Below are positions 313-49,425 of a DNA stretch of 64,000 bases, piece after piece. The DNA is taken from positions 1,302,001 through 1,366,000 of the forward strand of contig CM022670.1 of the NCBI GenBank assembly GCA_012295275.1, written 5' to 3'. Below the pieces are notes generated by a model that was not told where the DNA came from, did not search any database, and saw only the letters and a program-made list of their open reading frames with translations. Numbering within the stretch: position 1 is the stretch's first letter; each line of letters opens with the position of its first letter. A program made the position numbers and the translations under genes. The stretch is from Chrysomallon squamiferum. Lineage: Eukaryota > Animalia > Mollusca.

Positions 313-435
313 CTGTATTATCCGCATTCGCACCTTCTCCGCCTCCTGCTAGTAAATAACTTCCAAAGCTCGATGTGCCACCGTCCCCCCCATAGGAAGC
401 TTGTACATCCCCGTCTCTACCCCCACCCCCTCCTC
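313..435 (-). CDS. Locus A exon 7: glycine-rich domain (GGGGGGRDGDVQASYGGDGGTSSFGSYLLAGGGEGANADNTG); gene probably continues beyond the left edge
   Basis: ctcgttctag| acceptor, ACA G|gtataa donor; 123 nt, phase 1 to 1; continues exon 6 in frame to give VICIGGGGGG...GGTSSFGSY..AGGGEG; G-rich island in AT-rich DNA. Confidence 0.85.
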
Positions 436-922
436 CTAGAACGAGAGATTTCCAGTTATATATTATCTTTATTTAGAACAGTTTAAAATATTTCGTAAAT
501 TGAAATGAACAAATATATATATATATGAACAAATAAAATAAATAAATATAGTAAACTAATTAATTGACTGATAAATACTATACTATTCAGGAGTTAATGC
601 ATAAAAAAAAAAAAAAAAAAAACAACGCACAAACCGCACAAAACACACACACACACACATACACGCAAAAAAGAAACCCACACCAAACAATGGAATATAA
701 TATAACGGAACATAACATAAACAACAAAACAATAAAAACAAATGAAAAAAAAAAAAAAAATAAAAAAAATATAAAAAAAAAAAAAAAAAAAAAAATATTG
801 TAATCCTTATTATACAAAATAGCACAGAGAAGATTAGATCTTGCGAACCTAACGTTCTCGAGCAGTTTTCGTTATTACTACGTAATTATCTCCAGTTACA
901 CTGACAGACGTCAACTACTCAC

Positions 923-1051
923 CTATACAAATAACATCCACTTTGCTGACAAACGACGGCACGGTAAAAACATCATCTTTCAAAAACTGTTTTCTGGTAT
1001 ACTCAACTTTGTCCCAAGTTACTGGTGTTGGTTGTGTTGTTGTTATGAATT
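923..1051 (-). CDS. Locus A exon 6: Thr/Pro linker and start of glycine-rich domain (EFITTTQPTPVTWDKVEYTRKQFLKDDVFTVPSFVSKVDVICIG)
   Basis: ttttcag| acceptor, ATA G|gtgagt donor; 129 nt, phase 1 to 1, open frame; F-x4-FTVP-x2-V-x-KVDVICIG is the typical start of phage-tail-type glycine-rich domains. Not in the ORF track. Confidence 0.85.
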
Positions 1052-1285
1052 CTGAAAATTCAAATAATAATAATAATAATAATGATAATAATAATAATAA
1101 AAATGATGATGATGATGATGATGATAATGATAATGATAATGATGTTGATGATGATGATAATTATAATAATAATGATAAAATAAAATAAAATTATTTATAA
1201 ATACTTAATTTTCTAGCATCCGCCTCTAAATAATATCACCATCATCAACACAAGCAGCAGCAACAACAACAACAACAACAACAAC

Positions 1286-1339
<54 letters not shown>

Positions 1340-1412
1340 CTTATATAGTATGAATACCCATATTTTTAAATTTAATTCTATTATTATTATTGTTGTTATT
1401 GTTATTATTATA

Positions 1413-1464
<52 letters not shown>

Positions 1465-1564
1465 CTTTTGTATTATATAATGTGTACTAATATATATATA
1501 TATATATATAAAGTGTTAAAGTTCTTATAAAAAATATGTTAACTTCAATCCTTTGTCATTTTAC

Positions 1565-1784
1565 CATTAGAAATCGTCAAAGTCCAGGTATCTGCTTTGT
1601 AACAGCCTGAAAATGATTTGACTGGTCCCCACCTGACATCAAGCAGTTTGAGTAATCCGGGCGTGTCACCACCATTTGAATCGTCACCAGTAGCAGAGGA
1701 CCAGTGCATTTTCTTCACCAGAACGTATTTAGAAAGGTACACATCACTTAGTTCCGCAGAACTGAGGTGCTCGTAATAGCTAAA
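1565..1784 (-). CDS. Locus A exon 5: C-terminal half of the family domain (FSYYEHL...GDDSNGGDTPGLLKLLDVRWGPVKSFSGCYKADTWTLTISN)
   Basis: ttccag| acceptor at 1785/1784, phase 0; phase-1 donor AAT G|gtaaaa at 1565/1564; read-through gives a stop at 1545-1547 (possible short isoform). Homologous to terminal exons of B and C. Confidence 0.85.
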
Positions 1785-1787
1785 CTG

Positions 1788-1881
<94 letters not shown>

Positions 1882-2286
1882 TTATAATAATAATAATAAT
1901 AATAATAATACCATTACTACTATTACTACTACTACTTCTACTACTGCTACTACTACTAATAATAATGATAATAATAAAAAGTGTCATATGATTAACCTGT
2001 TAGCTACAACAACAACAACAACAAATGATGTAAACAGATTAATAACATGGGAGTGAGAGGTCAGTTCGGTCTGTGTGAAAGACTGACATAACGAGCATAC
2101 TAAAAATGAAGTAAAGATCACAGTCACGGACATATTGCCTTTTACTTTATTGTTATGAAAGATTAAGGTAACAACTATTGCAACAATTTAGATGTATTCG
2201 ATATGTAAGTATGCTATCTGGGTTCAGCATTCACCGACATAATGATTCTAAACCTACATCAAACAATCAAAAGATAAAAAGTGTAC

Positions 2287-2588
2287 CAAAAGTACAGCTG
2301 TTAAATGAACGTGTCTGTTGGAATGGATGATCCACTTTATGGGCTCATAGCTCGACAAAGCTAAAACAATAGGTTTTCTGGTTTCTCCTCTGATGTACAC
2401 GTTTGTCGTGACCGCTGTTGGAGGTCGGGTACGGGTTTTACCTCTGTATATGCCGAGCAGGTGCACGTCGTAGTCTTCCACGTCGATGTTGTTGACACAG
2501 CTGTATACTTTTTGTTCAGTGCCCTCCAACGTCGCTGTGGAAAGGGCGTTTGGGTTGTTTGGAAGGACCCTGCAGTTGCCCACCTCAG
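2287..2588 (-). CDS. Locus A exon 4: N-terminal half of the family domain (PEVGNC...DVHLLGIY...KPIVLALSSYEPIKWII...AVLL)
   Basis: ttttcacag| acceptor, TTG|gtacac donor; 302 nt, phase 1 to 0; same length and splice positions as 13069-13370; clear homology to three paralogues in the window. Confidence 0.9.
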
Positions 2589-2857
2589 CTGTGAAAAGGC
2601 GAACATTAAGACAGATAGACAGATAAAGTAGACAGACAGATTAAGTAGACAAGTTCAAAGACAGATAGAGAAGCAGAGAGCAAACTAGTAGATTTTTCTC
2701 TTTAAAAGAAAACTTAAACTGTAGAACGGAAAATTTTCGATTAAATAAAAGAAACCCAAAACTGAATAAACACACGAAAGCTCGCACTCACATTCATACA
2801 AAGAACATGTACACACATATTAGTGAGGGGGGAGGAAGGGTGGAGGGATTTAGGGAG

Positions 2858-2928
<71 letters not shown>

Positions 2929-2938
2929 CACAACATAC

Positions 2939-3049
2939 GTAAACAAGTGTATCTGTTGTATCCTGGTTTACGACACACACAGTATCCATTCAGACATTTA
3001 GCATTGTATGAGCCGCGGCAGAACTTGCTACAAGATTTCCTAGGTAGGT
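2939..3049 (-). CDS. Locus A exon 3: EGF-like module NLPRKSCSKFCRGSYNAKCLNGYCVCRKPGYNRYTCL
   Basis: 111-nt symmetric phase-1 exon, tgtttcag| and |gtatgt; six cysteines with a CxC motif; identical length and homologous to exons at 13662-13772 and 16571-16681. Not in the ORF track. Confidence 0.9.
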
Positions 3050-3096
3050 CTGAAACAACAACAACACGATACTACTACTACTACTACTACTACTAC

Positions 3097-3150
<54 letters not shown>

Positions 3151-3640
3151 CTAACAGGCGTTAGAATAAAAAGACGACAACGGTGATGATGATGAAGAAA
3201 AAAGAAGAGGAGAAGAAGAAGAAGAAAATGAAGATAATAATTTTAAAAAAAAAAACTAAAAGATAATACTTTAAGCTGTCGTTAAGCAAGTATCGGCTTT
3301 ATTTATTTGTAAGAAATAAAACAAGATGCTACAGGAGAGAACAAGTCAAAACAGTGCAAGAAAAGATAAGAAAAGTTTAGTTCAGAATAAAGACAACTTG
3401 TAAACGATACGACAAAGAAAAACAAGTGAGCCATGGCGTCTGGTTCGCAGCGTGGTAATTGTTTTGAAAGAAACAGGACGTTCGCGAAGTGCAGGCGCAT
3501 TGAATTGGGTGTACAGTCGAGTGACGTCTTTTTAGAAACTCAGTCTAATAAATAAATCCACGCTTAAACATGTGGCAACGTGAATTAAAAACTAAAAAAA
3601 TAAAAAAAAATTCTCGATGATGAATTTTATTTATTTATTT

Positions 3641-3679
<39 letters not shown>

Positions 3680-4351
3680 GTTACCTATTTTATTATTATT
3701 TATTTATTTGGATATTTATTCAATTATTATTTATTTATTTATTTATTTTTATATATTTACTTCAGTAACTTTAAAAAAAAAAAAATAATAATAAAAAAAT
3801 ATATAAATATCGAACATAAGGCTACGTGTACTACTGTGTAACTTTTTCAAATAAACGTTCCTATGTCAACAATGAAACTCAATCAGTTTCTGTATTAAAT
3901 TTCAACATATCCGTTCCCGTCGCGAATAAAAGATTTCTGTATTCACCCGAGTAACGAAATAAACGGATCTACAGATATAAGATTTGCGACTGGGGAATCA
4001 CGTGCTCACTTTATCCCACAAAAAAAGAACAAAGGGGATGAATTGCACTAAGAAGACGCGGCAAATCCCAGAGGAAATATCCCCTTTCGCCGTCCTTTGA
4101 TGATTCACTATTACAAAAATGTTTCGGATGTCTAAGTTTTCATTTTATTCTGGGATTGTCTTTTTTGTGTTTTTTTCCCTATGTAAATTTCCAAATAAAT
4201 ATATAAATATAAAACGAAAAGGATTATAAAAATAATAAGACTATATGTATATATATATATATATATAATTTAATTTTAACGTGCACATTAACACACAAAC
4301 ATACGAACGCACACGCACAGACGCACACATATAATGCGTAAACATACTTAC

Positions 4352-4382
4352 TCTGAGTCTTGTTGGATGGATTAATTGTGTC
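4352..4382 (-). CDS. Locus A exon 2 (31-nt mini-exon, DTINPSNKTQ)
   Basis: Acceptor tttctag| and donor |gtaagt; phase 0 to 1 links exon 1 to the EGF exon exactly; contains an NKT sequon; same position and phases as the 16-nt micro-exons of loci B and C. Confidence 0.8.
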
Positions 4383-4387
4383 CTAGA

Positions 4388-4448
<61 letters not shown>

Positions 4449-5125
4449 GTAATAGTAATATTAACAGTAATTATAATAATAATAACAATGGTAATAGTAA
4501 TAACAATAGTAGTAGTAATATTAATAATAGTAATAATAACAACAGTAATAGTAATAACAACAGTAGTAATAATAATAATAATAGTAATAATAATAATAAA
4601 TAATAAAAGTAATAGTAATAATAATAGTAGTAATAATAATAATAAACAATAATAATAATATCAATAATAATAAAACAATAATAATAATAAAAAATAAATA
4701 AATAAATAAATACATAAATAAATAAATAATTAGCAGTGATAATATAGCAATAATAGAAATTAAACAACCGAAAACAGTAATAGTATGAAATAATAGTAAT
4801 TATAATAATAATGGTGACGATAATAGACTGTTGATAAGTGATGGTAATGAAAACAATAATAAACTGAAGATTAAAAACTTAATAAGAAATAAAATATTTT
4901 CATCTAAATGTAAATTTTCATCAGTTACAATAAAAATAAATAAATAAATATTTAAATAAATAAGTAAGGAAATAAATAAATAAATAAGTAATCAAGGAAA
5001 TACATAAATAAATAAATTATAAAAACGAAAGAATGAGAGAAAGAAATAAGTAAGTTAGTAAGTAAATAAAACTAGTTTTACACAAATTGTAAAATTTATA
5101 AAATTTCTAATTATCATCATCATCA

Positions 5126-5211
<86 letters not shown>

Positions 5212-5248
5212 TATTATTATTACTATTACTATTATTATTATTATTGTT

Positions 5249-5280
<32 letters not shown>

Positions 5281-5290
5281 AAACACCAAC

Positions 5291-5689
5291 CTCTCTATGA
5301 ACAGGTTTTGTCAAAAACGTCGCCATCACCACCGTAACAACGACCAATACAACCGCGATCACAAGAACTACTACAACTTCTCTTCTGGGGCTGGTAGAAC
5401 GTGGTGAGGTCGAAACGCTGTCATCAGCTTGATCCGAAACAATTCTAAGGTTGAAACATTCCCTCTCTCCACTGGAACCGTTTGCGACGGTCGCGCGACC
5501 GGCTTCTGCATCAACGTCGTCGACGTTGTAAATAACAACACCGTTGGAATTAGTTCCGCCAGAATTCGAAGACATCACTTCGTTGTAACTAGGCGGAGAT
5601 GGCACCGAATCGGCTTTCACGAAGCCGTTGCTCGGACAGATTTCTTCGTAAGGAGGCGGAAAGTCACTGAAAACAGTGTCCGCTGACAT
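5291..5689 (-). CDS. Locus A exon 1: cytoplasmic N-terminus (PPPYEEI, PPSYNEV) plus transmembrane helix of a type II membrane protein
   Basis: ATG at 5689 in gaaATGT context; 133 codons of non-repetitive, GC-richer sequence; hydrophobic stretch VVVVLVIAVVLVVVTVVMATFL preceded by RR; phase-0 donor GAG|GTTGGT at 5291/5290, just before the ORF runs into (AAT)n. Confidence 0.85.
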
Positions 5690-9430: not shown

Positions 9431-11284
9431 ACAGCTATACTACTGTATAAAATCGCAAACAGCTATACTACTGTGTAAAATAGCAAACAGCTATACTACT
9501 GTATAAAACAGCAAACAGCTATACTACTGTATAAAACAGCAAACAGCTATACTACTGTGTAAAACAGCAAACAGCTATACTACTGTGTAAAACAGCAAAC
9601 AGCTATACTACTGTGTAAAACAGCAAACAGCTATACTGCTGTGTAAAACAGCAAACAGCTATACAAAAACAGCAAAAACAGCTATACTATGTGTAAAACA
9701 GCAAACAGCTATACTGCTGTGTAAAACAAACAAACAGCTATACTGTGTAAAACAGCAAACAGCTATACTATTGTATAAAATCACAAAACAGCTATACTAC
9801 TGTCTAAAACAGCAAACAGCTATACTACTGTATAAAATAGCAAACAGCTATACTACTGTGTAAAACAGCAAACAGCTATACTACTGTGTAAAACAGCAAA
9901 CAGCTATACTACTGTGTAAAACAGCAAACAGCTATACTGCTGTGTAAAACAGCAAACAGCTATACTATTGTATAAAATCGCAAACAGCTATACTACTGTG
10001 TAAAACAGCAAACAGCTATACTACTGTGTAAAACAGCAAACAGCTATACTACTGTGTAAAACAGCAAACAGCTATACTATTGTATAAAATCGCAAACAGC
10101 TATACTACTGTGTAAAACAGCAAACAGCTATACTACTGTGTAAAACAGCAAACAGCTATACTATTGTATAAAATCGCAAACAGCTATACTACTGTGTAAA
10201 ACAGCAAACAGCTATACTACTGTGTAAAACAGCAAACAGCTATACTACTGTCTAAAATAGCAAACAGCTATACTACTGTGTAAAACAGCAAACAGCTATA
10301 CTACTGTGTAAAACAGCAAACAGCTATACTACTGTGTAAAACAGCAAACAGCTATACTATTGTATAAAATCGCAAACAGCTATACTACTGTCTAAAACAG
10401 CAAACAGCTATACTACTGTATAAAATAGCAAACAGCTATACTACTGTATAAAATAGCAAACAGCTATACTACTGTGTAAAATAGCAAACAGCTATACTAC
10501 TGTGTAAAATAGCAAACAGCTATACTACTGTGTAAAACAGCAAACAGCTATACTACTGTGTAAAACAGCAAACAGCTATACTACTGTATAAAACAGCAAA
10601 CAGCTATACTACTGTGTAAAACAGCAAACAGCTATACTACTGTGTAAAACAGCAAACAGCTATACTACTGTGTAAAAAAATAAACAGCAAACTATACTGT
10701 GTAAAAAAAGCAAAAGCTAAAAATCGCAAACAGCTATACTATTGTAAAAATCAGCAAACAGCTATACTACTGTGTAAAACAGCAAACAGCTATACTACTG
10801 TGTAAAACAGCAAACAGCTATACTACTGTGTAAAACAGCAAACAGCTATACTACTGTGTAAAACAGCAAACAGCTATACTGCTGTGTAAAACAGCAAACA
10901 GCTATACTATTGTATAAAATCGCAAACAGCTATACTACTGTGTAAAACAGCAAACAGCTATACTACTGTGTAAAACAGCAAACAGCTATACTACTGTCTA
11001 AAATAGCAAACAGCTATACTACTGTGTAAAACAGCAAACAGCTATACTACTGTGTAAAACAGCAAACAGCTATACTACTGTGTAAAACAGCAAACAGCTA
11101 TACTATTGTATAAAATCGCAAACAGCTATACTACTGTCTAAAACAGCAAACAGCTATACTACTGTATAAAACAGCAAACAGCTATACTACTGTATAAAAT
11201 AGCAAACAGCTATACTACTGTGTAAAACTAGCAAACAGCTATACTACTGTGTAAAATAGCAAACAGCTATACTATTGTATAAAA
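9431..11284. repeat. 28-bp tandem satellite, about 66 copies, consensus AAACAGCTATACTACTGTGTAAAACAGC
   Basis: Directly visible array of ~1.85 kb with recurring variant units (ACTATTGTATAAAATCGC, ACTACTGTCTAAAA, ACTACTGTATAAAATAGC); no unique spacers. Confidence 0.97.
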
Positions 11285-11714
11285 TAATTGTGAATCAATA
11301 AAATGCTGTTGGACTTTTTCTTAAAATAACCAAAAAAGAAAGATAACGACGACAACAGCAACAACAACAGTAAAATAATGGTGATGACAATGATGATGAT
11401 AAAATAAATAAACAAACAAACAAACCAATAAATAAATAAATGAAAAAGCAAACAAGCATAAATAAATAAATAATAAAATAATGAAATATATTTTCAGTTA
11501 CAATATATTATCATGATTCTCATCAGAAACATTAACTTCATCATTATCAGGTCATCATTTGAATTAAAATTGCTAAAGGTAATAACTGTTGTCCTAGCTG
11601 TTGCGATTTTACCTGAAAATGTTGTCGCAGTATTTATATTAATTGTTGGTGGCATAGTAACAGTCTGTATTTCTGTATTAAATTTTCCAATGGATTCTGT
11701 GAGTGCAACAAACC

Positions 11715-11914
11715 CGGATATAACAAATATACCAGTTTACGTGAGTGAAATATCGTCTTTTATTATACTGGTAGGAGGAAAGACCCCAAACAAACCCAAA
11801 GACCAGAATGAAATAAGAAAATAGAAAAACTAGTTGAGCCAGTTGCTAAAAATATGTCCAGTCAATGTGAGATCGCCGTATATTTTTATTATTATCACTG
11901 TTGTTGTTGTTCAT

Positions 11915-11940
<26 letters not shown>
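11715..11940 (+). repeat. Left copy of a ~220-bp inverted duplication (partner 20160-20380)
   Basis: CGGATATAACAAATATACCAGTTTACGTGAGTGAAATA...CTAGTTGAGCCAGTT is the reverse complement, with few mismatches, of 20250-20380; similarity fades into (TAT)n. Confidence 0.9.
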
Positions 11941-11977
<37 letters not shown>

Positions 11978-12007
11978 TGATATTATTGTTGTTGTTGTTA
12001 TTATTAC

Positions 12008-12065
<58 letters not shown>

Positions 12066-12442: not shown

Positions 12443-12682
12443 TTAATAATCGACTAAATAGGTGCTGCCCACTGTGAGTGCCCAGTAGTCAGCTCTGAAG
12501 GTTCCAGTAAAGGAAGTCACATGACCAAATTGTTTTTTGATTTCAGTCAGTATCGTCAGAGTTTGACCTTCGACAGTATCAGTACCGTATCCATAGATAC
12601 GTTTTCTGATTTTCCTAACTGGAGGCATTGGTCTCCCAAACCCAATCAAATTTACAGAACACTTATCCACAAAGTATGAGTA
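12443..12682 (-). CDS. Locus B terminal exon (YSYFVDKC...GYGTDTVEGQT...FGHVTSFTGTFRADYWALTVGSTYLVDY*)
   Basis: Polypyrimidine tract plus ttgcag|; 240 nt to TAA; AATAAA on the minus strand near 12282-12287. Confidence 0.9.
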   Translation of the reverse strand, partial: YSYFVDKCSVNLIGFGRPMPPVRKIRKRIYGYGTDTVEGQTLTILTEIKKQFGHVTSFTGTFRADYWALTVGSTYLVDY

Positions 12683-13068
12683 CTGCAAGAAAGAAAAAAA
12701 AAAAAAAAAAAAAAATTGGTTTCACGCGCAAAGAGAATTATTACGCACATGCGTTCATTAACCATCGATCCATCGATCCTCCATATAGAACATATACATG
12801 CATATGTACATATATCTACATACATACATACATATATAGATATGCATACGTACATACACGCCATTCTACTCAGCAAAATATTGGTAAATATACGTTACTG
12901 CTAACAGATAAAATGACTCTACAGACTGATGTATAGAAGAAAGTATATGACTATAAGACATCTGATAACTGAGACTTTTAAAAAGTGATAACATTCTACC
13001 AATTCTTTCATTTACGTCTAAAGAAGCTTTTTTTTTTTCTTTTTTTTTCAGAATCAGAGAAATCGTAC

Positions 13069-13370
13069 CAGTATGACTTTCTGGATAGTGACTTCAGCAG
13101 GCACCTTAATCCACCAGGCTACAGCCAGATAGGACGTCAGAACTAGAACAACGGGTTTGTCTGTGTATCCCGAAATGACTAGAGTCGTATTCTCAACTTT
13201 AGCTGATGTTCGATAGATGTTTGTATAGCATCCAAGTACGTGAACTTCGGGCGACAGATTCAGATTGCTTTCATTGAAACAGCCGTACACAATCGCTTGC
13301 TTTCTGCCGCGATACAGTGGAACCGCCCTGGTTTGGTCTTCGCTGTGTACAAAACAACCAGCATAATCAG
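13069..13370 (-). CDS. Locus B domain exon (PDYAGC...PEVHVLGCY...KPVVLVLTSYLAVAWWI...KVIL)
   Basis: tttacag| and CTG|gtacga; 302 nt, phase 1 to 0; paralogous to 2287-2588 and 16041-16339. Confidence 0.9.
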
Positions 13371-13661
13371 CTGTAAATACAATTTTTAAATATTTCAAAT
13401 TGTGTCCCTTTACTTCATCGATTCGGACTGTTTCCCGTTCCGAACATGGCCTCTGACTCTGACAGTGTTTTCATCTCTGTGTGTGCGTGTGTATGTATGT
13501 ATGTATGTATCTATGTATGTATGTATGTATATGCGTGTGTATGTGAGTGTTTGTGTATTTTGCGTGTATGGGTGTGAGTGGTTGTATGTATATGTGTCTG
13601 TATGTACTTCTGTGAGCATGTGTATGTGTCAACAGATAAATTTATTTATAATGATACATAC

Positions 13662-13772
13662 GCAAGCACGTATAGTAGTTGTATCCAGTTTTGTCACAAA
13701 CACAGTATCCGTCAACACATTTGGCTTTTAACCTATGAACACCCGAACAATAAGTTCCCAGGCAGTGAGTAG
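13662..13772 (-). CDS. Locus B EGF-like exon (ATHCLGTYCSGVHRLKAKCVDGYCVCDKTGYNYYTCL)
   Basis: catttaaag| and |gtatgt; 111 nt, phase 1 to 1; six conserved cysteines. Confidence 0.9.
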
Positions 13773-14112
13773 CTTTAAATGATCATAATAAATATTTACA
13801 AATTATACACTTGTATGCTTACCTACCTACCTACCTATATATATCGATGCATATATGCATACATATATACATACACAAATACATTCATACATACAAACAC
13901 ACACTATTATTAAAATAAAAAGTAAAATAAAAATCAATTTAAAGCCAGTATATAAAAATACATAAATAAATAAATACATACATACATACATACATACATA
14001 CATACACACACGCATACATACACACATACAAATATATATACATACATACATTCATAAATATATACATACATGCAAACATACATACAAACATACATAGGCA
14101 AGCGAAACAGAG

Positions 14113-14251
<139 letters not shown>

Positions 14252-14663
14252 GTGTTTCACAGAAAGATAATTTTAAAATACATACTTGGAGTTAGTTCTG
14301 TAAAACAAAATAATAGTAACTACAGTGAGAAATAAATACAATCATTAGATTAAATACAGTCTAAAATATGACGTATTAACATTAAATAAGTAGATAAATG
14401 ATGATCATGGTACTGATTATTTTAATAACAATAGCACAAAGTTAGGTAAAAGAAGATGAAAGAACTTGATGTAACAGATAAGACTTGGGAACATAAAATA
14501 TATGAAATTTGAACAAATAAGCCAAGATAGGATGAGATATGATAAGATATCGTGATCACATATTTAACACAAGACACTGAGAGAACAGAAATAATAATTA
14601 TAATCTAAAGAATAACCAAGTTTGTTTTGTTGGGTTTTTTGTTGTTTTTTTGTAACCACTTAC

Positions 14664-14679
14664 CATTCCTTCCATTCCC
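14664..14679 (-). CDS. Locus B 16-nt micro-exon (GNGRN)
   Basis: ctattacag|GGGAATGGAAGGAATG|gtaagt; phase 0 to 1; same length and flanks as 17682-17697. Confidence 0.75.
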
Positions 14680-15547
14680 CTGTAATAGAATATAATTATT
14701 TATATATATATATTTTAGATTTGAAAATTTATGTATATGTACTTGTGTATGTGAACGTGCGCCTGTCAGTATATGTGAACTATGGATGTATACATATGTA
14801 TATGTGTGTGTTTGTGTGAATTTAAATACGTATGCACATAGATACTTATGTATGCGTGTATGTATACGTGTGAAGGATGTATATATGTGTTTGTTTGTAT
14901 GTATGTATGTACAGGTACTCACGAATGTATGTATGTATAAATCTATTTTAGGACTGAATATGTACATCTGACTAGACTCTGTAGGTAGACATTATTCAGG
15001 TAAACACATTGGCGCAGTCAAACTTCTTTATAAGGCCGATATTGTTGAACAAAATAAAAAAATAGGCAATTGTTATATGTAACAGGTTTCTTCTGTCTTC
15101 ACACCTAAACACAATGTTTCTATGACAACGTGCAAGCAGCAATACATAAAAGAGCTCATTGTAATAACCTGCGGTGTTAAAAGTGCCATCAAGAAACGTT
15201 TACCAAGCTGATTTCCCCTGAAGATTTTGAAAATAACTACACAGGAAAATATAACATTTATTCGTCAATTGCTATAATTTATAGTTTCGATGACCGTATA
15301 AAAGATAGGGTATTTTTATTATACGTTTGAATGGAGTCTGGCGCAAAAACGGGTAAAACGGGTACATTCTTATATACTTACATACAATCGATCGTTACTC
15401 AAGTATATTTGAGGCAGTGAATGGGGATGGATGTATGTCGAGAAAAGTTACAAAGAGGTTTAACTGTATTCCTCAACAATTCATTACTACTAAAATATTT
15501 CTTTGACAGTGAAGCAAACAAAAGAATTTTAATAATCAAATGATAAG

Positions 15548-15763
15548 TCAGCTGACCACTCTGAGTGACCATTGGTTAGCGCTGTAGGTTCCAGTAAAGG
15601 AAGTCACGTGTCCAAACTGTTTCGTGACGTCAGCCAGTAACTTGAATGTGTGACCTCCGAACATATCAATACCGTATCCATAGAAACCCGTTCTGCTTTT
15701 CTCAACTGGAGGGTTGTATCCACCACTCACAACTACAAAAGTCTTTTCCATAAAGTGTGAATA
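15548..15763 (-). CDS. Locus C terminal exon (YSHFMEK...GYGIDMFGGHT...FGHVTSFTGTYSANQWSLRVVS*); complete predicted protein is 233 aa, secreted
   Basis: ctcttgcag| acceptor; 216 nt to TGA; the following ~50 nt of 3'UTR are homologous to those after locus B. Confidence 0.9.
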   Translation of the reverse strand, partial: YSHFMEKTFVVVSGGYNPPVEKSRTGFYGYGIDMFGGHTFKLLADVTKQFGHVTSFTGTYSANQWSLRVVS

Positions 15764-16040
15764 CTGCAAGAGAGAAAGAAAAATGGTTTTAGTTTCACAC
15801 GTAAACAGGATACATACGTAAATACATTAACCTATCCATCCATCCATCAATGTACATATACATATATACATACATACACGCCATTCTACTCAGCAAAATA
15901 TTAGTGAATATACGTTACTGCTAACTGATAAAATGACTCTACAGACTGATGTATAAAAGAAAGCATACGACTGTAACACATCTGATAACTGATATTATTA
16001 AAACGTGATGAGATTCTAAACGTTTTTTTCTAAATCTTAC

Positions 16041-16339
16041 CAGCATGATTTTCTGGACAGTGATTCCAGCAGGCACAGTAATCCACCAGTATACAGGTTT
16101 GTAGGACGTCAAAACAAAAACAACAGGTTTGGTTGTCTGTCCCACCAAGTCAACAACAGTAAACACGGGTTCAGACGGTCCTTCCACGTTCGTATAGGAC
16201 GCAAGCACGTGAACCTCGGGCAACAGGTTCTCGGTGTTTTTATTGAAACAGCTGTACACAGACAATCGGCTTTTGTCATGATAAAGTGGAACCGCCCTGC
16301 TTTCTGTGTTTCTTTGTACTAAACAACCAGCATAATCAG
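16041..16339 (-). CDS. Locus C domain exon (PDYAGC...LPEVHVLASY...KPVVFVLTSYKPVYWWI...KIML)
   Basis: tttgcag| and CTG|gtaaga; 299 nt, phase 1 to 0. Confidence 0.9.
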
Positions 16340-16570
16340 CTGCAAATAAACAACTTAAATAAACAAAAATTATGTCCCTTTAATTCATCGATTCAGATTA
16401 TCTTCCGTTCCAGCCATGGCCTCTGACACTGACTGTGTGTGTGTGTATCAGTGTGTGCGCGCGTGTGTATGTGAGTGTTTATGTATGTGTGTATTAGTGT
16501 TTGTTCGTGTATATATGTATCTTGATGTATGTTTGTGTGAAGAGATAAATGTATGTATAAAGATACATAC

Positions 16571-16681
16571 GCAAGCACGTGTAGTAGTTGTACCCAGTTT
16601 TGTTACAAACGCAGTAATGGTTGACACATCTGGCTCCAATCTTAGACAACCCCGGACAATACGTTCCCAGGCATCGACTTT
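16571..16681 (-). CDS. Locus C EGF-like exon (KSRCLGTYCPGLSKIGARCVNHYCVCNKTGYNYYTCL)
   Basis: catttaaag| and |gtatgt; 111 nt, phase 1 to 1; six conserved cysteines. Confidence 0.9.
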
Positions 16682-16881
16682 CTTTAAATGATTATAATAA
16701 TACTTTACTTATAGATTATGCACTTGTAAACCAACATACCTACCTACGTATATACATGCATAAATATGTATACACACTAGCCCGAGTATCCTCTGTCGAA
16801 AAACAGATCACATTTGGATGTCATCAGCAGGAGATAGGTCTATATCTTGGCTGGTAAACTTATAGATATAGACATAAGGAA

Positions 16882-17009
<128 letters not shown>

Positions 17010-17105
17010 GGAAAGAGAGAGAAGGATAGGAAGTGCGTGAGTGATAGAGAGGTAGAAAGTGTAAGAATGTATGTCTTTCACAGGCAGTTTAACAATAAAA
17101 ACAAA

Positions 17106-17243
<138 letters not shown>

Positions 17244-17681
17244 ATGTATTTCACAAAGAGGTAATTTAAAAATAAATACTTGGAGTTTTTACTGTAATAG
17301 AATAAAAGTAAATACAGTCAGAAATAAATACAATCATTTTATTAAATACATTCTAAAATGTATGACTTGATATTAACTATAACAACAACAACAACAACAA
17401 AAATAACCATTGCAACAACAATTATAACAGCAGTAACAACAACAACAACAATAATGATTATAAAATACGTTAAACAGGATGAAACAACACGATATGATGG
17501 ATAAAATTGGGTCACATGAAATAAGGAAAACATTGATGAACTGGGTCAAGATAACATAAGATGAAATTAGATATGATAAGAAAGATAAAGTAAGATGAGA
17601 TAATAGCACTGATAATTCAAATATATTCTATAACCAGATATATATATATATTTAAAGTTAACTAATTAAGTAACAACTTAC

Positions 17682-17697
17682 TATTATTGTTATTCAC
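17682..17697 (-). CDS. Locus C 16-nt micro-exon (VNNNN)
   Basis: ctattacag|GTGAATAACAATAATA|gtaagt; phase 0 to 1 restores frame between leader and EGF exons. Confidence 0.78.
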
Positions 17698-17892
17698 CTG
17701 TAATAGTAAATATTTATTTAAGTATGCGTGTACGTCTGCTTGTATATAAGTATTTAAGTATTTACTTATGTGTACAAAAGTCCTTACGTATGTATGTATG
17801 TATGTATGTATCTATGTATGTATGTATGTATGTATGTATCTATGTATGTATGTATGTATGTATGTATGTATGTATGTATGTATGTATGTATG

Positions 17893-17925
<33 letters not shown>

Positions 17926-18077
17926 GTATATATATGCACGTATGTATATGTGTATGTATGTATGTATGTGTGTATCTATGTATGTATTTATGTGTGTATG
18001 TATGTATGTATGTATGTGTGTGTGTGTGTGTATGTATGTATATTATGTCATAAGAAATAACATAAACTAGTACTTAC

Positions 18078-18137
18078 TGGTGCTTGAGATAAAACTAAGT
18101 GTGATATAACCAGTAGAAATGTCAGCCTTACATCCAT
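18078..18137 (-). CDS. Locus C signal-peptide exon (MDVRLTFLLVISHLVLSQAP)
   Basis: ctcATGG start, 20 codons with a basic residue, hydrophobic core and small-residue C-region; phase-0 donor CCA|gtaagt matches the micro-exon; acceptor tgtttcag| 22 nt upstream (18160/18159) implies a 5'UTR exon further upstream. Confidence 0.75.
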
Positions 18138-18397: not shown

Positions 18398-18756
18398 TTA
18401 TTTTTTATTACTGGATACATTGAGAGTCCACTCATCTGCTCTGTAACATCCGAAAAATGATTTTACAGATCCCCATCTAGAGTCGAGATACTTCAACAAG
18501 CCGACTGTGTCTTCACCTCTTGACAAAACTAAAACAACAGGTTTCCAGCTTTCTCCTTTGATGTACGTATTTGTCGTTCCCGCTGATGCAGGTCTTGTGT
18601 GGACATTACCTTCGTAGTTGCTCAAGACGTGGACATCGTATTTTCCTCGTTCAACGTTGTTGACGCAGCTGTGAAGCTTTTGAGCAAAACCGTTGTACTT
18701 TGCTATGGCAACTGCACTGGGATTATCAGGAATTATCTTACAGTTTCCTACATCGG
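18398..18756 (-). pseudogene. Locus D: A-like paralogue with an in-frame internal deletion fusing the two domain exons; no EGF or leader exon found
   Basis: ttttcgcag| acceptor then DVGNCKIIPDNP...KPVVLVLS joined directly to RGEDTVGLLKYLDSRWGSVKSFFGCYRADEWTL; about 58 codons plus the intron seen in A are missing; frame still open; possible phase-1 donor TCC A|gtaata at 18412/18411. Confidence 0.7.
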
Positions 18757-20059
18757 CTGCGAAAACCAGAATAGAAATATCTAAAGTATTTGGCAAATCT
18801 AATAATAATAATAATCATAATCATAATCATAATAATTACAATACTACTACTAATAATAATAATAATAATAATAGTAATAATAATAGTAATAGTAATAAAA
18901 ATAGGAACGACAACAATAGTATCAACAGCAACAACAACAACAGCAATAATCATAATTTCCCCACTAGTGGGCAGTGATATTTGTAAATGTTATACAGACT
19001 GACCAGTGTCCATTTCCTGGTCTTTGAAATTTTGTTGAAAGTGTTAACCAATATATGTCAGATATTTGTGTTGTAGTTTAGACAACTGAAGATATGCTCT
19101 GATTTTAAACTGTGAAATTAATGTATTTTTAAAAATAGTAGTCTATATCGTATCAGTAATATTTGTCGAGAATTTCTTGTTCTCTTCTAGAAAAATCGAA
19201 AAAGAAGAGGAGACTCAGTGCTAGAAAAAACAAATGAATAAACAAAGAAACAACGATAGAATGACTGATAAATATCGAAAGCATAAAAGATAATTTTAGA
19301 AAACAATTATGGTGAATATTTATGCACTTTCAAATTTCCTATTTGTATTAAAATAAATTTTAAGTGAATCATTTTCAAACAAAAAGTTAACATCAGAAAA
19401 TAAACTAAAGATAAATGAATGGATGAATGAATGAATAAATAAATAATTAAAAAAAACAATAAATAATTAAAAAAAAAAAAACTAGTACTACTCCAAAGAG
19501 AAAAAGAAAATTAATACAAATGAAAAAAATGTTAACGAACATAATGTGAACCTAAATACATCTAAGGAGTTTGTTATCAGATTTCTGTTACAAACAAACT
19601 CTTGTTCTGTCTACATGTGTATTAAAATTCAACAAGCAAACTATTCCACATCGTGATTTTAATTACTAAGTTCTTTGTTCTTGTAAAATTCTACTGCCTC
19701 CATCTTCGGTTTGCAGGTCAAAGGTGTATATTTGCATTTGAGTTTATAAAAATAAAATCTGCATTTAGAGATTGGTCGACAAATCGCCGAGTATGATGTT
19801 TCATTGTCAAGTCACTTTGGTCATCTTACACTGAGCCTATTGTCCGCAGTCTGAAACTTGAGTAACTAGAAACAATCATCTTGTCTTTTTTCTGTCTTCC
19901 AAAAAAGAGTCGTAACGTAACGCGCTGTAGTTGTTTCCCCTGATAAACAAAACCTTGAATGTAATTACGATACAAACAATGAGAGGAAACAACTGGATGG
20001 AAATTTATTCTGAAATTTTATCTGACCGCTTGATTTATAGTTCTGTCATCAACCGGTGA

Positions 20060-20131
<72 letters not shown>

Positions 20132-20159
20132 CATAATAATCATAATCATAATCATAATA

Positions 20160-20380
20160 ATAATAATAATAATCATAACATGAACAACAACAACAAATAA
20201 TAATAATAAAATTATACAGCGATGTCACAAAGACTAGACGTATTTTTAGTAACTGGCTCAACTAGTTTTTCTATTTTCTTATTTCATTCTGGTCTTGGGT
20301 TTGTTTGGGGTCTTTCCCTCCTACCAGTATAATAAAAGACGTTATTTCACTCACGTAAACAGGTATATTTGTTATATCCG
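20160..20380 (-). repeat. Right copy of the inverted duplication (partner 11715-11940)
   Basis: AACTGGCTCAACTAG...TATTTCACTCACGTAAACAGGTATATTTGTTATATCCG. Confidence 0.9.
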
Positions 20381-20636: not shown

Positions 20637-21218
20637 TACTACTCAAACGAAGTTAAGGGCCAGAAATATTTGAGAAAATAAAAATAAGCTAATATGCTAA
20701 AATTGTGACGACCCAAGCCATAACTGAACTGGAGTAAGAACTGTGACTCATCTGTGAATAATGTCTCTGCCCACTGCCCACGTGTCCACCTGATGTGACG
20801 TCTGCGCAAATGAAGGCGAGCCAGATATCAGACTACATGACGCAGACATCGCAAACGATTCCTACTCGTCAGACGCACTGTTGTCTATAGCAGCTCTGAG
20901 TTGATCACGAAAATCGCCGTGCGGTCACAAAACGCTGTCACAGCGTCGATATCATCAGGAAACGTCTTCTCGTGCTGTTGTTGATCGTGATCTTCCAGAA
21001 CGGGAGTGATACTGAATAGAAGTAGTCGTCCTGAACCGCTTCCAGAGTCTACAGATATCACCTTGGTTTACATTTAGACACTGAGCCGCAGATCTTTGAG
21101 TGTGTTCATCTTGTCTAAATGACAACAGTAAAGTCAATAATCCTGTCTGGCCTAAAAAGAACACACTTTCAAAAATGATCAAAAAGTTCCTTTGAGTCTT
21201 AACTTCTTTTGAGTAGTG
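20637..21218 (-). mobile_element. Internally deleted Tc1/mariner DNA transposon (582 bp)
   Basis: 21-bp TIRs (TACTACTCAAACGAAGTTAAG at 20637 / CTTAACTTCTTTTGAGTAGTG ending 21218), both flanked by TA; transposase relics TQRSAAQCLNVNQGDICRLWKRFRTT...RSGRSRSTTARED (HTH), HIRWTRGQWAETLFTDESQF (first D of DDE) and SVMAW, with stops and frameshifts. Confidence 0.92.
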
Positions 21219-21741
21219 TATATAAATATAAAGCGATAAAGATGACAGATACATAATTTAAATCATATATCATGGTTTTGAAACATCTGAGTTTTTATTT
21301 TCGTCGTTATATTTTGATATAATTGTTTTTTTTATAGTCATTGTTACATATAATATACCAGTACACATTCTGCAGATATAAGGATTCCGAACATTTCACT
21401 ATATACAAAATATTTTAAATAAACGACATCCTCTCCGAATTTATCATAAATTGAAGTAGACGGCTACGGCGTTGTTTTTCTACGTTTTATCACGAACTTA
21501 CTGATTTTAGATAAATCATCTCTTTACTTTAAATGAAAAAGTGACTGAATGAATGAATGAACGAATGAGTCAGTGTATGTGTGTGTTAGTAAATGACTGT
21601 GAGTGAATGACAGTGAGTGAAGGAGTGAGTGAGTGAAGGACTGAGTGAGTGAAGGACTGAGTGAGTGAGCGAGGGAATGATTAATGAAGGAATGAGTGTA
21701 TGAATGAACGAGTGAGTTGAGAAAAAATATTGTGAAATACT

Positions 21742-21905
21742 GTAATTTATAGTTTTGATGATCGTATAAAAGATCGGGTATTTTTACTACACGTTTGAAC
21801 AGAATCTGTGGCCCGGCGCTTACCTGGAAAGAAGGGTAAAACGGGTACATCTTTATTTACTTACATACAGACGATCGTTGTTCAAGTATAGGTGGAGGCG
21901 GTGAA
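21742..21905 (-). repeat. Direct copy of 15274-15421; candidate 5'UTR exon/intron-1 boundary of locus C
   Basis: Shared blocks TAATTTATAGTTT..CGTATAAAAGAT..GGGTAAAACGGGTACAT..TACTTACATAC..CGATCGTT..CAAGTATA; a minus-strand GTAT|GTAAGT donor is conserved in both copies. Confidence 0.7.
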
Positions 21906-47800: not shown

Positions 47801-48756
47801 TCAGTATTCGGTTCCTTGTCACAAAGGCAGTGGATGTTTGCACGACCCCAGGCTTAAATGCGTTCGACACGAGATGAAAGTTAAATAATATGATATTCCA
47901 TACTTGTATACTTAATATTAAATTACTACTGTAAATATACGTTATATATTAAGTAAGGTAAAACTTCGGTCCGTGTACCTGTTAAGTAACAGTTTTGTTT
48001 AAAAGTCGGTGTGTGGTATATTACTGAAAAATATACACGAAAGTCTACGCCGCTTTGCTAGTCAGAAGTTAGCGGTGAATGCAGGTTATCGATCTAACAG
48101 TTGTGAATTATCTACAATCTCTGCCAGCGACCCAACACGCCACTGTCAGGCAGGTAGAGTTCGACAGCGCTGGAAGAAAACCAACACGGGTTATGAAAGT
48201 TCTCCATACGTCGCTGAGATCACACGGCAGGTTTTTACGACAAACAAGTTTTGCCTGACGCTTTTTGTCTGATTCGAGATCGCAGAGCAGCATGTTACAA
48301 ACCAGTTCGTCTGCTGTTGCGACCCAAAGCTCAACCCTCTCGTAGCTGCGGGTCCGAGTCGAGCGCAGTGTTAAGTAAACATCGTATCAGTTTCCGAGGA
48401 GCCAATGGAGAGAGAGCCGAGGTGACAGTCAGTGCCGTGTTTTCAGAACTGGCTTCACACTGGTTTATGGAGAGAAGGGATATATACGCGTGTACAGCTA
48501 GATGTTTACTGGTATGACTCTTTTCTCAAAACATGTGGGCGACCAGTGAAGTTTTATTATGACGCAAAAGTCGTCTGGTTTCGCATGTTCAAACTTTGGT
48601 GACTGTTGTTGATGACATCAGTAGAAAAGTTTTTATCAAGCTTCTGTTCGTATTTACAAACAAGTCGTTTCTAATCTCGCTCAATTCTTATGAGCGTATT
48701 TGTTTAGTCGAGGACTATAAAGAAGTGAAATTGTGCCGAACGAGAACATTGGCGAC

Positions 48757-49425
48757 ATGGAGTTCGGTACGCTTGCTAGCGATGTGTTGTATTCTTCGAG
48801 GGATATACCTGGTGGTTCCACAGATTTCTGTCGAGTTCTCGAGCAGATTCGAATAATGGATGAAAGTGAAGGATCCAGAGTGTGCGAAATAAAAGAAACG
48901 AAATACGACAAAAAGAAATCGAAAAAAGACAAAGATAAATCGAAATCGAAATCGAGCGGTGAAAACAACAACAGATTCTGGCGTTTGAAGAGACACCAAA
49001 ACAATCGGGTGGAATCCCCGACTGGTGCCGATTCTTCACGAACACAAACGGCACCTACGTCCACCCATTCCGATCAAACGCAGTGCAAGTACAGTGATTC
49101 CGAAAACGCTCGGAAACCTCGAGAGACAGTTCACGCACAAATCGGCAGCACGCACAACCCCAACTTGTTAGGGTTTTCGGGGATTGACGATGAAGAATTC
49201 CGCCAAAGATCGAAGAGTGACTCTTCGGCTATGGCTCCCCGAAGACGTCCGGTAGTGGTGTCACCCATAGATTCGTTGCACGTGCATTGGCCGGACGAGC
49301 GGAAAGGAGCGAGGTTAACGACAACACTTCGGCCAAGATCGTTTTCTCACGGAGCGACCGGGATGCCTCACAAACCCATTCTGAAGAAAGGAGCCTCGGG
49401 ATCATTACGACCTGAATATTTTTAA
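48757..49425 (+). CDS. Uncharacterised, largely disordered 222-aa ORF (single-exon gene or first coding exon of a larger gene)
   Basis: Longest non-repetitive ORF in the window; GC-richer than the flanks; gacATGG start with an in-frame stop upstream (48718); Lys-rich NLS-like tract, RxRxxS motifs (RQRSKS, RPRSFS), LHVHWPD, KPILKK; preceded by a CpG-rich ~1-kb region with CCAAT (~48402) and TATATA (~48481). No family recognised. Confidence 0.7.
   Translation: MEFGTLASDVLYSSRDIPGGSTDFCRVLEQIRIMDESEGSRVCEIKETKYDKKKSKKDKDKSKSKSSGENNNRFWRLKRHQNNRVESPTGADSSRTQTAPTSTHSDQTQCKYSDSENARKPRETVHAQIGSTHNPNLLGFSGIDDEEFRQRSKSDSSAMAPRRRPVVVSPIDSLHVHWPDERKGARLTTTLRPRSFSHGATGMPHKPILKKGASGSLRPEYF

Follow-up and report, generated by a model that had tools for sequence, protein, structure and literature searches.

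Gene organization at the locus

The window analysed is a 64,000-nucleotide stretch of the Chrysomallon squamiferum genome (contig CM022670.1, positions 1,302,001 to 1,366,000). It contains a predicted minus-strand gene (gene A) that encodes a six-cysteine (Cys) module and an orphan (OR) domain, together with two paralogues (B and C), a broken copy (D) and an inverted fragment:

5291..5689, minus strand: gene A exon 1, with ATG, predicted cytosolic tail with two PPxY motifs and predicted transmembrane (TM) helix; tail and TM are alignable to residues 20-133 of Gigantopelta P0005
5659-5648, minus strand: PPPY of PPPYEEI, overlapping a YxxPhi motif (gene A exon 1)
5596-5585, minus strand: PPSY of PPSYNEV, overlapping a YxxPhi motif (gene A exon 1)
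about 5374-5309, minus strand: TM helix of gene A exon 1, predicted from hydrophobicity
4352..4382, minus strand: gene A exon 2, a 31-nt phase 0-to-1 micro-exon; stalk with one N-x-T sequon
2939..3049, minus strand: gene A exon 3, symmetric phase-1, 111 nt; six-cysteine module
2287..2588, minus strand: gene A exon 4, opening portion of the single OR domain, including two conserved cysteines
1565..1784, minus strand: gene A exon 5, remainder of the OR domain: the conserved G-x-D-x-x-G-G-x-T loop, a helix and the last strands
923..1051, minus strand: gene A exon 6, Thr/Pro linker, then the first strands of a glycine-rich domain
313..435, minus strand: gene A exon 7, the initial glycine runs of a domain resembling Gly_rich_2
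15548..18137, minus strand: paralogue B (exons 18137-18078, 17697-17682, 16681-16571, 16339-16041, 15763-15548), signal-peptide-like start, Cys module, one OR, stop
12443..14679, minus strand: paralogue C (exons 14679-14664, 13772-13662, 13370-13069, 12682-12443), micro-exon, Cys module, one OR, stop
18398..20380, minus strand: broken copy D, 3' Cys-exon remnant (20380-20355) and OR exon (18756-18398)
11680..12039, plus strand: inverted fragment, partial Cys exon and the following intron

Exon structure and coding frame of gene A

The seven-exon model of gene A, first proposed in a sequence-only reading of this DNA, was reproduced in full. All seven exons lay at the proposed positions, every acceptor ended in AG and every donor started with GT, the cumulative exon phases were 0,1,1,0,1,1,1 and joining the exons by script gave 438 codons with 0 stops. 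The same reading had the open frame running off the left edge; the gene does leave the window, but the frame itself does not reach the edge because the window stops 312 bases inside intron 7. The C-terminus of gene A lies beyond the window, so later domains could alter the reading. GC content was 46.9% in the exons vs. 23.3% in the introns. Base shuffles of the joined coding sequence were open in 0 of 10,000 trials, a weak control because the exons were picked for openness.

Comparison with homologues gave stronger support. Residues 144-371 were collinear with Gigantopelta P0002 at 60% identity, spanning junctions 3/4 and 4/5, and residues 376-437 were collinear with amphioxus P0043 (57.6% over 62 residues), spanning junction 6/7. 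The intron phases, including the phase 0-to-1 micro-exon, were kept in paralogues B and C. The dN/dS ratio between gene A and copy D was 0.40 for exon 4 (78 codons) and 0.16 for exon 5 (36 codons), values that show purifying selection on exons 4-5 as estimated from these codons. Across junction 1565-1051 (exons 5/6) the sole alignment was a low-complexity Thr/Pro one, to P0002, and no homologue among the proteins compared crossed the junction convincingly. By a rough donor matrix with approximate frequencies, the donors of exon 1 (GAG|GTTGGT) and exon 4 (TTG|GTACAC) scored low. Exon 6 had a good acceptor and the best donor of the gene. Splicing of the predicted exons in vivo, above all of exon 5 to exon 6, is putative. 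At 5287 a second candidate donor for exon 1 (phase 1, with exon 2 skipped) scored lower than the modelled one, and a search of introns 1 and 2 for a hidden signal-peptide first exon passed no candidate.

Cytosolic tail and membrane topology

Gene A has one hydrophobic segment, which peaks near residue 106 (19-residue Kyte-Doolittle mean 3.28) after a polar tail of 105 residues, suggesting a type II, single-pass topology. The tail contains PPxY motifs at residues 11-14 (PPPY) and 32-35 (PPSY) and aligned with the tail of P0005 (E 4.4e-8 among the 179 proteins compared). Both motifs are kept, as PPPYEEI and PPSYNEV in gene A and PPTYEEL and PPSYNEV in P0005, and P0005 was the one homologue among those compared with a PPxY tail and TM segment. 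The conserved tail and the single TM segment on its C-terminal side agree with the type II layout proposed earlier. No domain match was found in the 105-residue tail. PPxY motifs bind NEDD4-family WW domains and YxxPhi motifs bind AP-2; by this motif logic, the tail would bind both.

The cysteine module and the orphan domain

The cysteine spacing in exon 3 is C-x3-C-x7-C-x4-C-x-C-x9-C, a pattern that occurred 51 times in 38 of the compared proteins and window genes, and the exon was 71.8% identical to P0002 residues 22-60. The spacing, the C-x-C and the symmetric phase-1 exon are EGF-like. EGF identity, which the sequence-only reading had assigned to this exon, is unproven; no EGF family match was found in Pfam and no PDB match below E 0.07 (the fold searches covered residues beyond 36). 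Sub-cutoff weak matches to CS-alpha-beta, scorpion and nodulin peptides were rejected as cysteine-pattern noise.

For the OR domain begun in exon 4, 144 homologues were found at E<=0.001; exon 4 as a query by itself had no match among longer proteins, in the Atlas or in metagenome contigs. A profile of the OR family reached betaglycan at E 1.7e-8. The fold was modelled for the homologue P0002, 60% identical to gene A, and this model (pLDDT 95) superposed on betaglycan with a Z of 18.8 (rmsd 2.2 over 153 residues), compared with 3.8 for the best unrelated fold. Foldseek placed the model with betaglycan/endoglin at E 4.1e-8, and the OR model had no match among viral structures (best E 0.063). 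A profile from bacterial OR sequences only had three PDB matches, all betaglycan and all weak (E 0.08-0.43). What had been called an orphan-like domain is, as judged by the profile and the homologue's modelled fold, a true betaglycan/endoglin OR domain. Coral and bacterial OR homologues, including P0001, P0040 and many bacterial matches, carry the precomputed label PF26060 (TGFBR3/endoglin-like N-terminal domain), which probably covers the OR domain of this family.

Gene A shares the fold and the conserved cysteine pair with the orphan region of betaglycan (TGFBR3) and endoglin (PDB 6MZN, 9FDY, 9B9F, 5I04). In the vertebrate proteins, however, two OR domains intertwine and are accompanied by a ZP module and a TM segment at the C-terminus, whereas gene A has one OR only, after the Cys module and before a different domain, with tail and TM at the N-terminus. 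No ZP domain was found in the 438 gene A residues within the window or in the Pfam matches of the scanned homologues. Betaglycan and endoglin are type I proteins with a signal peptide, in contrast to the gene A segment near residue 106 behind its polar tail, and the betaglycan TGF-beta loop residues are not conserved in the alignment of the OR family profile. Gene A is probably not a betaglycan. For endoglin, the orphan region has been reported to be a novel fold, with tubulin cofactor C as the sole distant relative suggested (PMC5464963). Among open-access papers screened by title and start of abstract, none described lone OR domains or the Cys+OR family.

The glycine-rich domain

The start of the glycine-rich domain in exon 6 was 56.5% identical to that of P0043, and exon 7 was 55% identical to P0043. 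The window takes in about 62 residues of the domain, and by comparison with P0043 about 150 more are expected outside it. The likeness to phage tail proteins noted earlier is supported by sequence comparison: exon 7 matched phrog_863 (tail fiber assembly) at E 4.9e-5, the glycine-rich homologue from amphioxus matched the same family at 4.4e-8, and the best Atlas match of that homologue was a PF21722 Gly_rich_2 cluster (0.90, 166 shared features). Its direct score against PF21722 was 19.5 bits, under the curated cutoff of 24.3, and single exons of gene A gave no Gly_rich_2 match in Pfam. No match was found for the homologue in phage records or viral contigs, or for exon 7 among PDB sequences.

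The proposed relation to ALK/LTK, receptors whose glycine-rich region forms a supradomain with a TNF-like part, is weak, with E 0.14-0.22 against ALK and 3.2 against LTK for the whole domain. The model of the homologue was poor (pLDDT 39.6); it gave Z 4.9 against ALK (rmsd 2.6 over 67) and Z 5.4 against the cyanophage Pam3 fiber (rmsd 4.6 over 76), the latter tied with unrelated beta folds, and Foldseek returned nothing (best E 3.3). The PF21722, phage tail-fibre and ALK/LTK regions share with gene A the start motif and strands at both ends of the glycine runs. ALK and LTK, however, are type I receptors with a cytosolic tyrosine kinase, whereas gene A has a 105-residue N-terminal tail and no kinase. 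The domain may adopt a polyglycine-II fold, and glycine-rich PPII bundles can bear variable binding loops, as described for phage gp38 (10.1101/2023.11.25.568672).

Relatives of gene A

The Cys+OR module was found in uncharacterised extracellular proteins of sponges, corals, molluscs, hemichordates, echinoderms and amphioxus, and as repeats in bacteria. Its partners include C-type, SUEL and F5/8 lectin, Sushi, LRR, WAP, MAM, TSP1, LDLR-b, Ig, trypsin, reeler and VWD domains. All of these are extracellular binding, immune or matrix types, and they equally suit matrix or adhesion proteins. Among 55 bacterial-type homologues examined, the repeats followed a hydrophobic segment in 44 of the 54 with a match, and many were on ECF sigma or BlaR1-like proteins. 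Planctomycete ECF extensions are reported often to stem from chance capture of neighbouring genes (PMC7671368), which weakens a sensor reading of the bacterial fusions. NCBIfam had no match for seven of the nine proteins scanned, and P0171 as a query found none in genome contigs.

Gigantopelta and Branchiostoma proteins are among the closest relatives of gene A. Uncharacterised Gigantopelta aegis LOC121374683 (P0002) has the Cys+OR part at 60% identity, but it has a signal peptide and TARSH_C and no glycine-rich domain. LOC121383034 (P0005), also uncharacterised and from G. aegis, shares the PPxY tail, TM and Cys+OR but has TARSH_C ahead of Cys+OR and ends after the OR without a glycine-rich domain. 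Branchiostoma floridae LOC118413629 (P0043) and its B. lanceolatum relatives have Cys+OR followed by the same glycine-rich domain; these are large mosaic proteases (Fz, Ig, trypsin) with a cysteine-rich spacer between OR and glycine-rich domain, and no PPxY tail or N-terminal TM was seen in them. OR with a glycine-rich domain was found in amphioxus and in two bacterial-type proteins. The domain combination that the sequence-only reading did not recognise was, in its full order, unmatched among the proteins retrieved, but each pairwise combination has precedent and Cys+OR is widely shuffled. Gene A represents a novel arrangement in a modular family that is so far uncharacterised.

Paralogues and broken copies

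The tandem paralogues upstream of gene A were absent from the sequence-only reading. Paralogue B encodes 233 aa and is predicted to be secreted; the rule used for hidden signal-peptide exons found no first exon for paralogue C. Both have a 16-nt, phase 0-to-1 micro-exon at the place of gene A exon 2. Copy D lacks about 58 codons of the OR exon and the intron dividing the two OR exons, and the inverted fragment is 90% identical over 327 nt to 20380-20060. By OR sequence, gene A fell with P0002 (100/91), which is secreted, despite its own P0005-like tail; B and C fell with P0005 (100/95), a membrane-type protein, despite the signal peptide of B; and copy D fell with the gene A OR. Between B and C, dN/dS was 1.13, exons (72-76% identical) had diverged at the pace of the introns (69-81%), and open frames and cysteines were kept. 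By analogy, this divergence would fit diversifying recognition families; a ratio near 1 also fits relaxed selection.

Proposed role and alternatives

Gene A is probably an endocytic recognition receptor, as predicted from its domains and motifs. The full reading, to which we give a probability of about 0.48, is of a type II receptor whose ectodomain (Cys module, one OR, linker and glycine-rich domain) would bind a foreign or extracellular surface ligand, while the two conserved PPxY/YxxPhi motifs of the tail would drive uptake and turnover. The family would swap first exons (signal peptide or tail and TM) and last domains (TARSH_C, glycine-rich or none) around a constant Cys+OR core, yielding membrane-bound as well as soluble forms of a single recognition module.

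We regard it as unlikely that gene A is tethered to the membrane in a structural or adhesion role in matrix, mucus or shell-forming epithelium, with OR and glycine-rich domains as scaffolds and the PY tail serving turnover only. TARSH_C, TSP1, reeler, VWD and WAP, which are found in matrix proteins, are frequent partners, and the module is flanked by Thr/Pro linkers; however, the lectin, Sushi, LRR and protease partners and the change seen in B and C, which is near-neutral or diversifying, better suit recognition, and the two conserved tail motifs suggest regulated uptake. We consider quite unlikely a TGF-beta/BMP-family co-receptor or decoy acting through an endoglin OR1-like edge site, a scheme in which B and C would be soluble antagonists. 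Betaglycan and endoglin are the only solved OR relatives, endoglin binds BMP9 via OR1 alone (PMC5464963) and the soluble betaglycan ectodomain neutralises ligands (PMC10381214), but betaglycan depends on both of its subdomains and on a loop that ends in S-A-F-Q (PMC11865472). The equivalent loop has no aromatic residue in the family profile or in gene A (R-P-P-T-A-V-T), and the single OR, the opposite topology and the lack of ZP in the part seen also argue against this role. The OR domain also occurs in bacteria, which are not known to have TGF-beta/BMP-family ligands; moreover, a conserved ligand fits poorly with fast-diverging tandem paralogues.

It is improbable that the model is partly chimeric (exons 1-5 from one gene and 6-7 from another transcript or broken copy) or that the locus is a decaying tandem array. 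The low-complexity alignment across 1565-1051, the broken and inverted copies and a stop that lies six codons past the exon 5 donor on read-through, at the point where B and C terminate, would suit such an origin. Against it, the phases at this junction are compatible (1-1), exon 6 has favourable splice sites, no alternative start occurs between exons 5 and 6, amphioxus proteins also have OR and then the same glycine-rich domain, and exons 4-5 appear to be under purifying selection.

For the endocytic recognition receptor, a broader history is conceivable but doubtful: OR would be an ancient recognition module that bacteria and invertebrates share, the vertebrate pair would descend from the lone, unswapped form, and the snail lineage would have added a phage-tail-type polyglycine domain and an endocytic tail, giving a microbe-capturing receptor with diversifying secreted decoys, an undescribed invertebrate pattern-recognition family. 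A published proposal derives the endoglin pair from an ancestral OR2 gene that was duplicated and circularly permuted (PMC5464963); instead of permuting an OR2-type ancestor, the vertebrate pair would have arisen by simple tandem duplication and hairpin swap, with OR1-type order.

PF26060 seems to cover the OR domain already, each pair of domains has precedent, and the function of gene A is a prediction. Gene A is of value chiefly because its OR domain stands alone and is probably unswapped. With single copies present in molluscs, corals, sponges, amphioxus and bacteria, it becomes testable how the fold arose and what it first bound, and paralogue B, predicted to be secreted, is a ready minimal construct. 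The locus also displays exon shuffling between membrane and secreted forms.

Gene A and its tandem copies

Seven minus-strand exons of gene A (window 5689-313) were found where a sequence-only reading had placed them. All acceptors end in AG and all donors begin with GT, the phases run 0, 1, 1, 0, 1, 1, 1, and the exons, joined by script, gave an open frame of 438 codons without a stop. The product contained the motifs PPPY (residues 11-14) and PPSY (residues 32-35) and a single strong hydrophobic segment at about residues 106-127, followed by a six-cysteine exon (Cys module), the betaglycan/endoglin orphan domain (OR), a linker and the start of a glycine-rich part. The window is AT-rich eukaryotic DNA with many microsatellites; within gene A, GC content was 23.3% in introns vs. 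46.9% in exons. The window edge falls 312 bases inside intron 7, and introns 7 and 1 have about 260 bases in common (22-276 and 4546-4808; 87% identity, mostly low-complexity).

Further copies were detected upstream of gene A, all on its strand, together with an inverted fragment.

Copies of the gene A module in the window
Gene B, 18137-15548, minus strand: signal-peptide-like start, micro-exon, six-cysteine exon, two OR exons, stop; 233 aa
Gene C, 14679-12443, minus strand: layout as gene B; a first exon was sought and not found
Copy D (broken): Cys-exon remnant and OR exon without about 58 codons and without the inner intron
Inverted fragment of copy D, 11680-12039

The splicing, read from homology, has good support at three junctions. 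Residues 144-371 of gene A were collinear with P0002 (Gigantopelta aegis LOC121374683; 60% identity) and residues 376-437 with P0043 (amphioxus, Branchiostoma floridae LOC118413629; 57.6%), the former match spanning junctions 3/4 and 4/5 and the latter enclosing junction 6/7. With a snail supplying the nearest homologues, the host is probably a gastropod. Junctions 1/2 and 2/3 were backed by equal phases and the micro-exon in paralogues B and C. Gene A is a real gene and its exons are called correctly.

By simple codon counts, dN/dS for A vs. D was 0.40 in exon 4 (78 codons) and 0.16 in exon 5 (36 codons); the values were 0.24 and 0.30 for A vs. B and C (dS saturated), and 1.13 over 212 codons for B vs. 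C. Identity between B and C was 72-76% in exons and 69-81% in introns and flanks. Genes C and A are separated by a 28-bp unit in tandem (9431-11284; about 67 copies, 89% matches). The minus-strand segments 21728-21905 and 21251-21315 resemble two parts of the surroundings of gene B, its 3' flank (15259-15421) and the region upstream of its first exon, and on this likeness appear to be remains of another tandem unit. Directly upstream of copy D is a GC-rich minus-strand stretch (20640-21100) whose broken frames resemble a decayed Tc1-type transposase, judged by a motif; Pfam gave no support for a transposase in this stretch. A GC-rich plus-strand open frame of 234 codons (48721-49425), with a second GC-rich stretch at about 48100-48500, had no match in Pfam or NCBIfam and probably represents one large exon from an unrelated gene.

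Identity of the OR domain

The part described from sequence as orphan-like was borne out as a betaglycan/endoglin domain by both profile and fold. A profile from four window exons retrieved 39 proteins out of 6,341 candidates, and exon 4 alone retrieved 144 cluster representatives (E <= 0.001). When a 72-row alignment with the P0002 module as its first sequence was searched against PDB sequences, the four matches were all to betaglycan (E = 1.7e-8 to 6.6e-6), and every one comprised two tandem stretches. The AlphaFold model, made for the homologous P0002 module rather than for gene A (pLDDT 95.2, pTM 0.91), gave nine Foldseek matches at E <= 0.001, all betaglycan/endoglin; with VIA-align against 48,161 chains, betaglycan/endoglin scored Z 18.8 (rmsd 2.2, 153 residues), 13.1 and 11.7, and the next match 3.8. 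The invariant columns among 47 full-length modules were two cysteines, H, W, G, D and G, which include a G-x-D-x-x-G loop that betaglycan does not have. PF26060 is the precomputed label on many of the coral and bacterial homologues; we take it to be the TGFBR3/endoglin-like N-terminal domain, and Pfam seems already to include the OR domain under this entry. Gene A itself is not betaglycan, endoglin or ALK because it failed tests of their topology and architecture.

Distribution of the module

Named homologues came from Ephydatia, Oculina, Porites, Tegillarca, Pinctada, Saccostrea, Gigantopelta, Ptychodera, Saccoglossus, Glandiceps, Holothuria, Amphiura and Branchiostoma, and in them the Cys module and OR together (Cys+OR) stood alone, repeated, or next to another domain. 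Neighbours included TARSH_C, trypsin, Ig, Fz, LRR, Sushi, C-type, SUEL and F5-8 lectin, WAP, MAM, TSP1, LDLR-b, reeler and VWD, as scanned in partly overlapping sets of 8, 30, 6 and 15 proteins out of about 200 proteins. TARSH_C was the most frequent partner in the scanned animal homologues (P0002, P0005, P0031, P0041, P0052, P0067, P0079 and P0142).

In bacterial-type proteins the OR repeats lacked the Cys module and were frequently attached to ECF sigma or BlaR1-like proteins, and a hydrophobic segment preceded the first repeat in 44 of the 54 proteins with a match (55 examined). Bacterial ECF sigma and BlaR1-like proteins in the range P0003-P0039 carried two to five betaglycan-type OR repeats past the TM segment, and many were named with a predicted esterase at the end. 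These fusions are weak evidence for sensing because ECF sigma extensions are often chance captures, according to passages of PMC7671368. A bacteria-only OR profile matched betaglycan alone, weakly.

An OR tree of 86 domains (103 found, minus 18 near-duplicate rows, plus D; no vertebrate sequence) split 38 bacterial-type rows from 48 others at 100/100, the bacterial label being our own, from domain context and partial naming; being midpoint-rooted, the tree says nothing about direction of transfer. Gene A fell into a group with P0002 and D (100/99); P0005 (G. aegis LOC121383034) formed another with B and C (100/95). Gene A has the tail of P0005 and B a P0002-like signal peptide, against the OR grouping, so first exons have been exchanged around the core.

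Tail, Cys module and glycine-rich part

P0005 was the sole match to the gene A tail among 179 proteins (E = 4.4e-8). Both PPxY motifs of the tail are kept in P0005, the two tails having PPxYEE[IL] and PPSYNEV in common, and by sequence both tyrosines also lie within YxxPhi motifs, the type of signal recognised by AP-2. The Cys module, C-x3-C-x7-C-x4-C-x-C-x9-C, had been read as an EGF domain; the symmetric phase-1 six-cysteine exon stands, but neither family nor structure searches gave an EGF match. Its spacing had 51 similar matches across 38 proteins.

The glycine-rich part also had a sole match among 179 proteins, P0043 (E = 2.6e-16). Exon 7 matched phrog_863 (tail fiber assembly) at E = 4.9e-5, and the full P0043 glycine-rich domain scored 0.90 to the PF21722 Atlas cluster and 19.5 bits on PF21722, below the 24.3 cutoff. 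A profile reached ALK only at E = 0.14-0.22, and a poor model of the P0043 domain (pLDDT 39.6, 5-row alignment) gave cyanophage fibre (Z 5.4) and ALK (Z 4.9) among tied weak matches. On these scores, the proposed resemblance to a phage tail is likely and the proposed link to ALK is suggestive only. Two bacterial-type proteins, P0171 and P0176, share the pairing of gene A, with a C-terminal glycine-rich domain after their OR repeats.

Gene A is a new arrangement in a widespread, uncharacterised family on a known fold. The combination of parts, which the sequence-only reading did not recognise from any characterised animal family, is new as an arrangement among the proteins retrieved, but each neighbouring pair of parts has precedent elsewhere.

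Possible function of gene A

Gene A would be a type II membrane protein that displays Cys+OR and the glycine-rich domain outside the cell. The ectodomain would bind a surface ligand, the PY/YxxPhi tail would lead to uptake and degradation of the protein, and B, and probably C, would be soluble versions of the module. We give this reading, an uptake receptor with soluble counterparts, a probability of about 0.48. Many pattern-recognition receptors are reported from Gigantopelta in passages of PMC7895826, in whose main text the words endoglin and betaglycan do not occur; the passages of PMC10381214 and PMC13187141 contain no description of lone OR domains.

The same displayed parts may instead serve as a matrix or adhesion scaffold, which we consider unlikely. 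A role as TGF-beta/BMP co-receptor or decoy, to which the betaglycan/endoglin fold might point, is a little less probable; it is weakened because betaglycan requires both subdomains and a loop that gene A does not keep (passages of PMC11865472). Least probable is a partly chimeric gene A model; in its favour, the only match spanning junction 5/6 is low-complexity linker.

Origin of the OR fold

The lone OR domain offers a test of the origin and first ligand of the TGF-beta co-receptor fold. For the orphan region of endoglin, PMC5464963 proposed duplication and circular permutation of an ancestral OR2 gene. The lone module runs from hairpin cysteine to core cysteine to core and aligns in order with each betaglycan half, and the P0002-module model spans betaglycan 30-359, its 153 aligned residues corresponding to the subdomain of first strands and last core. 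Such an order would fit a simple tandem duplication in which the hairpin was swapped.
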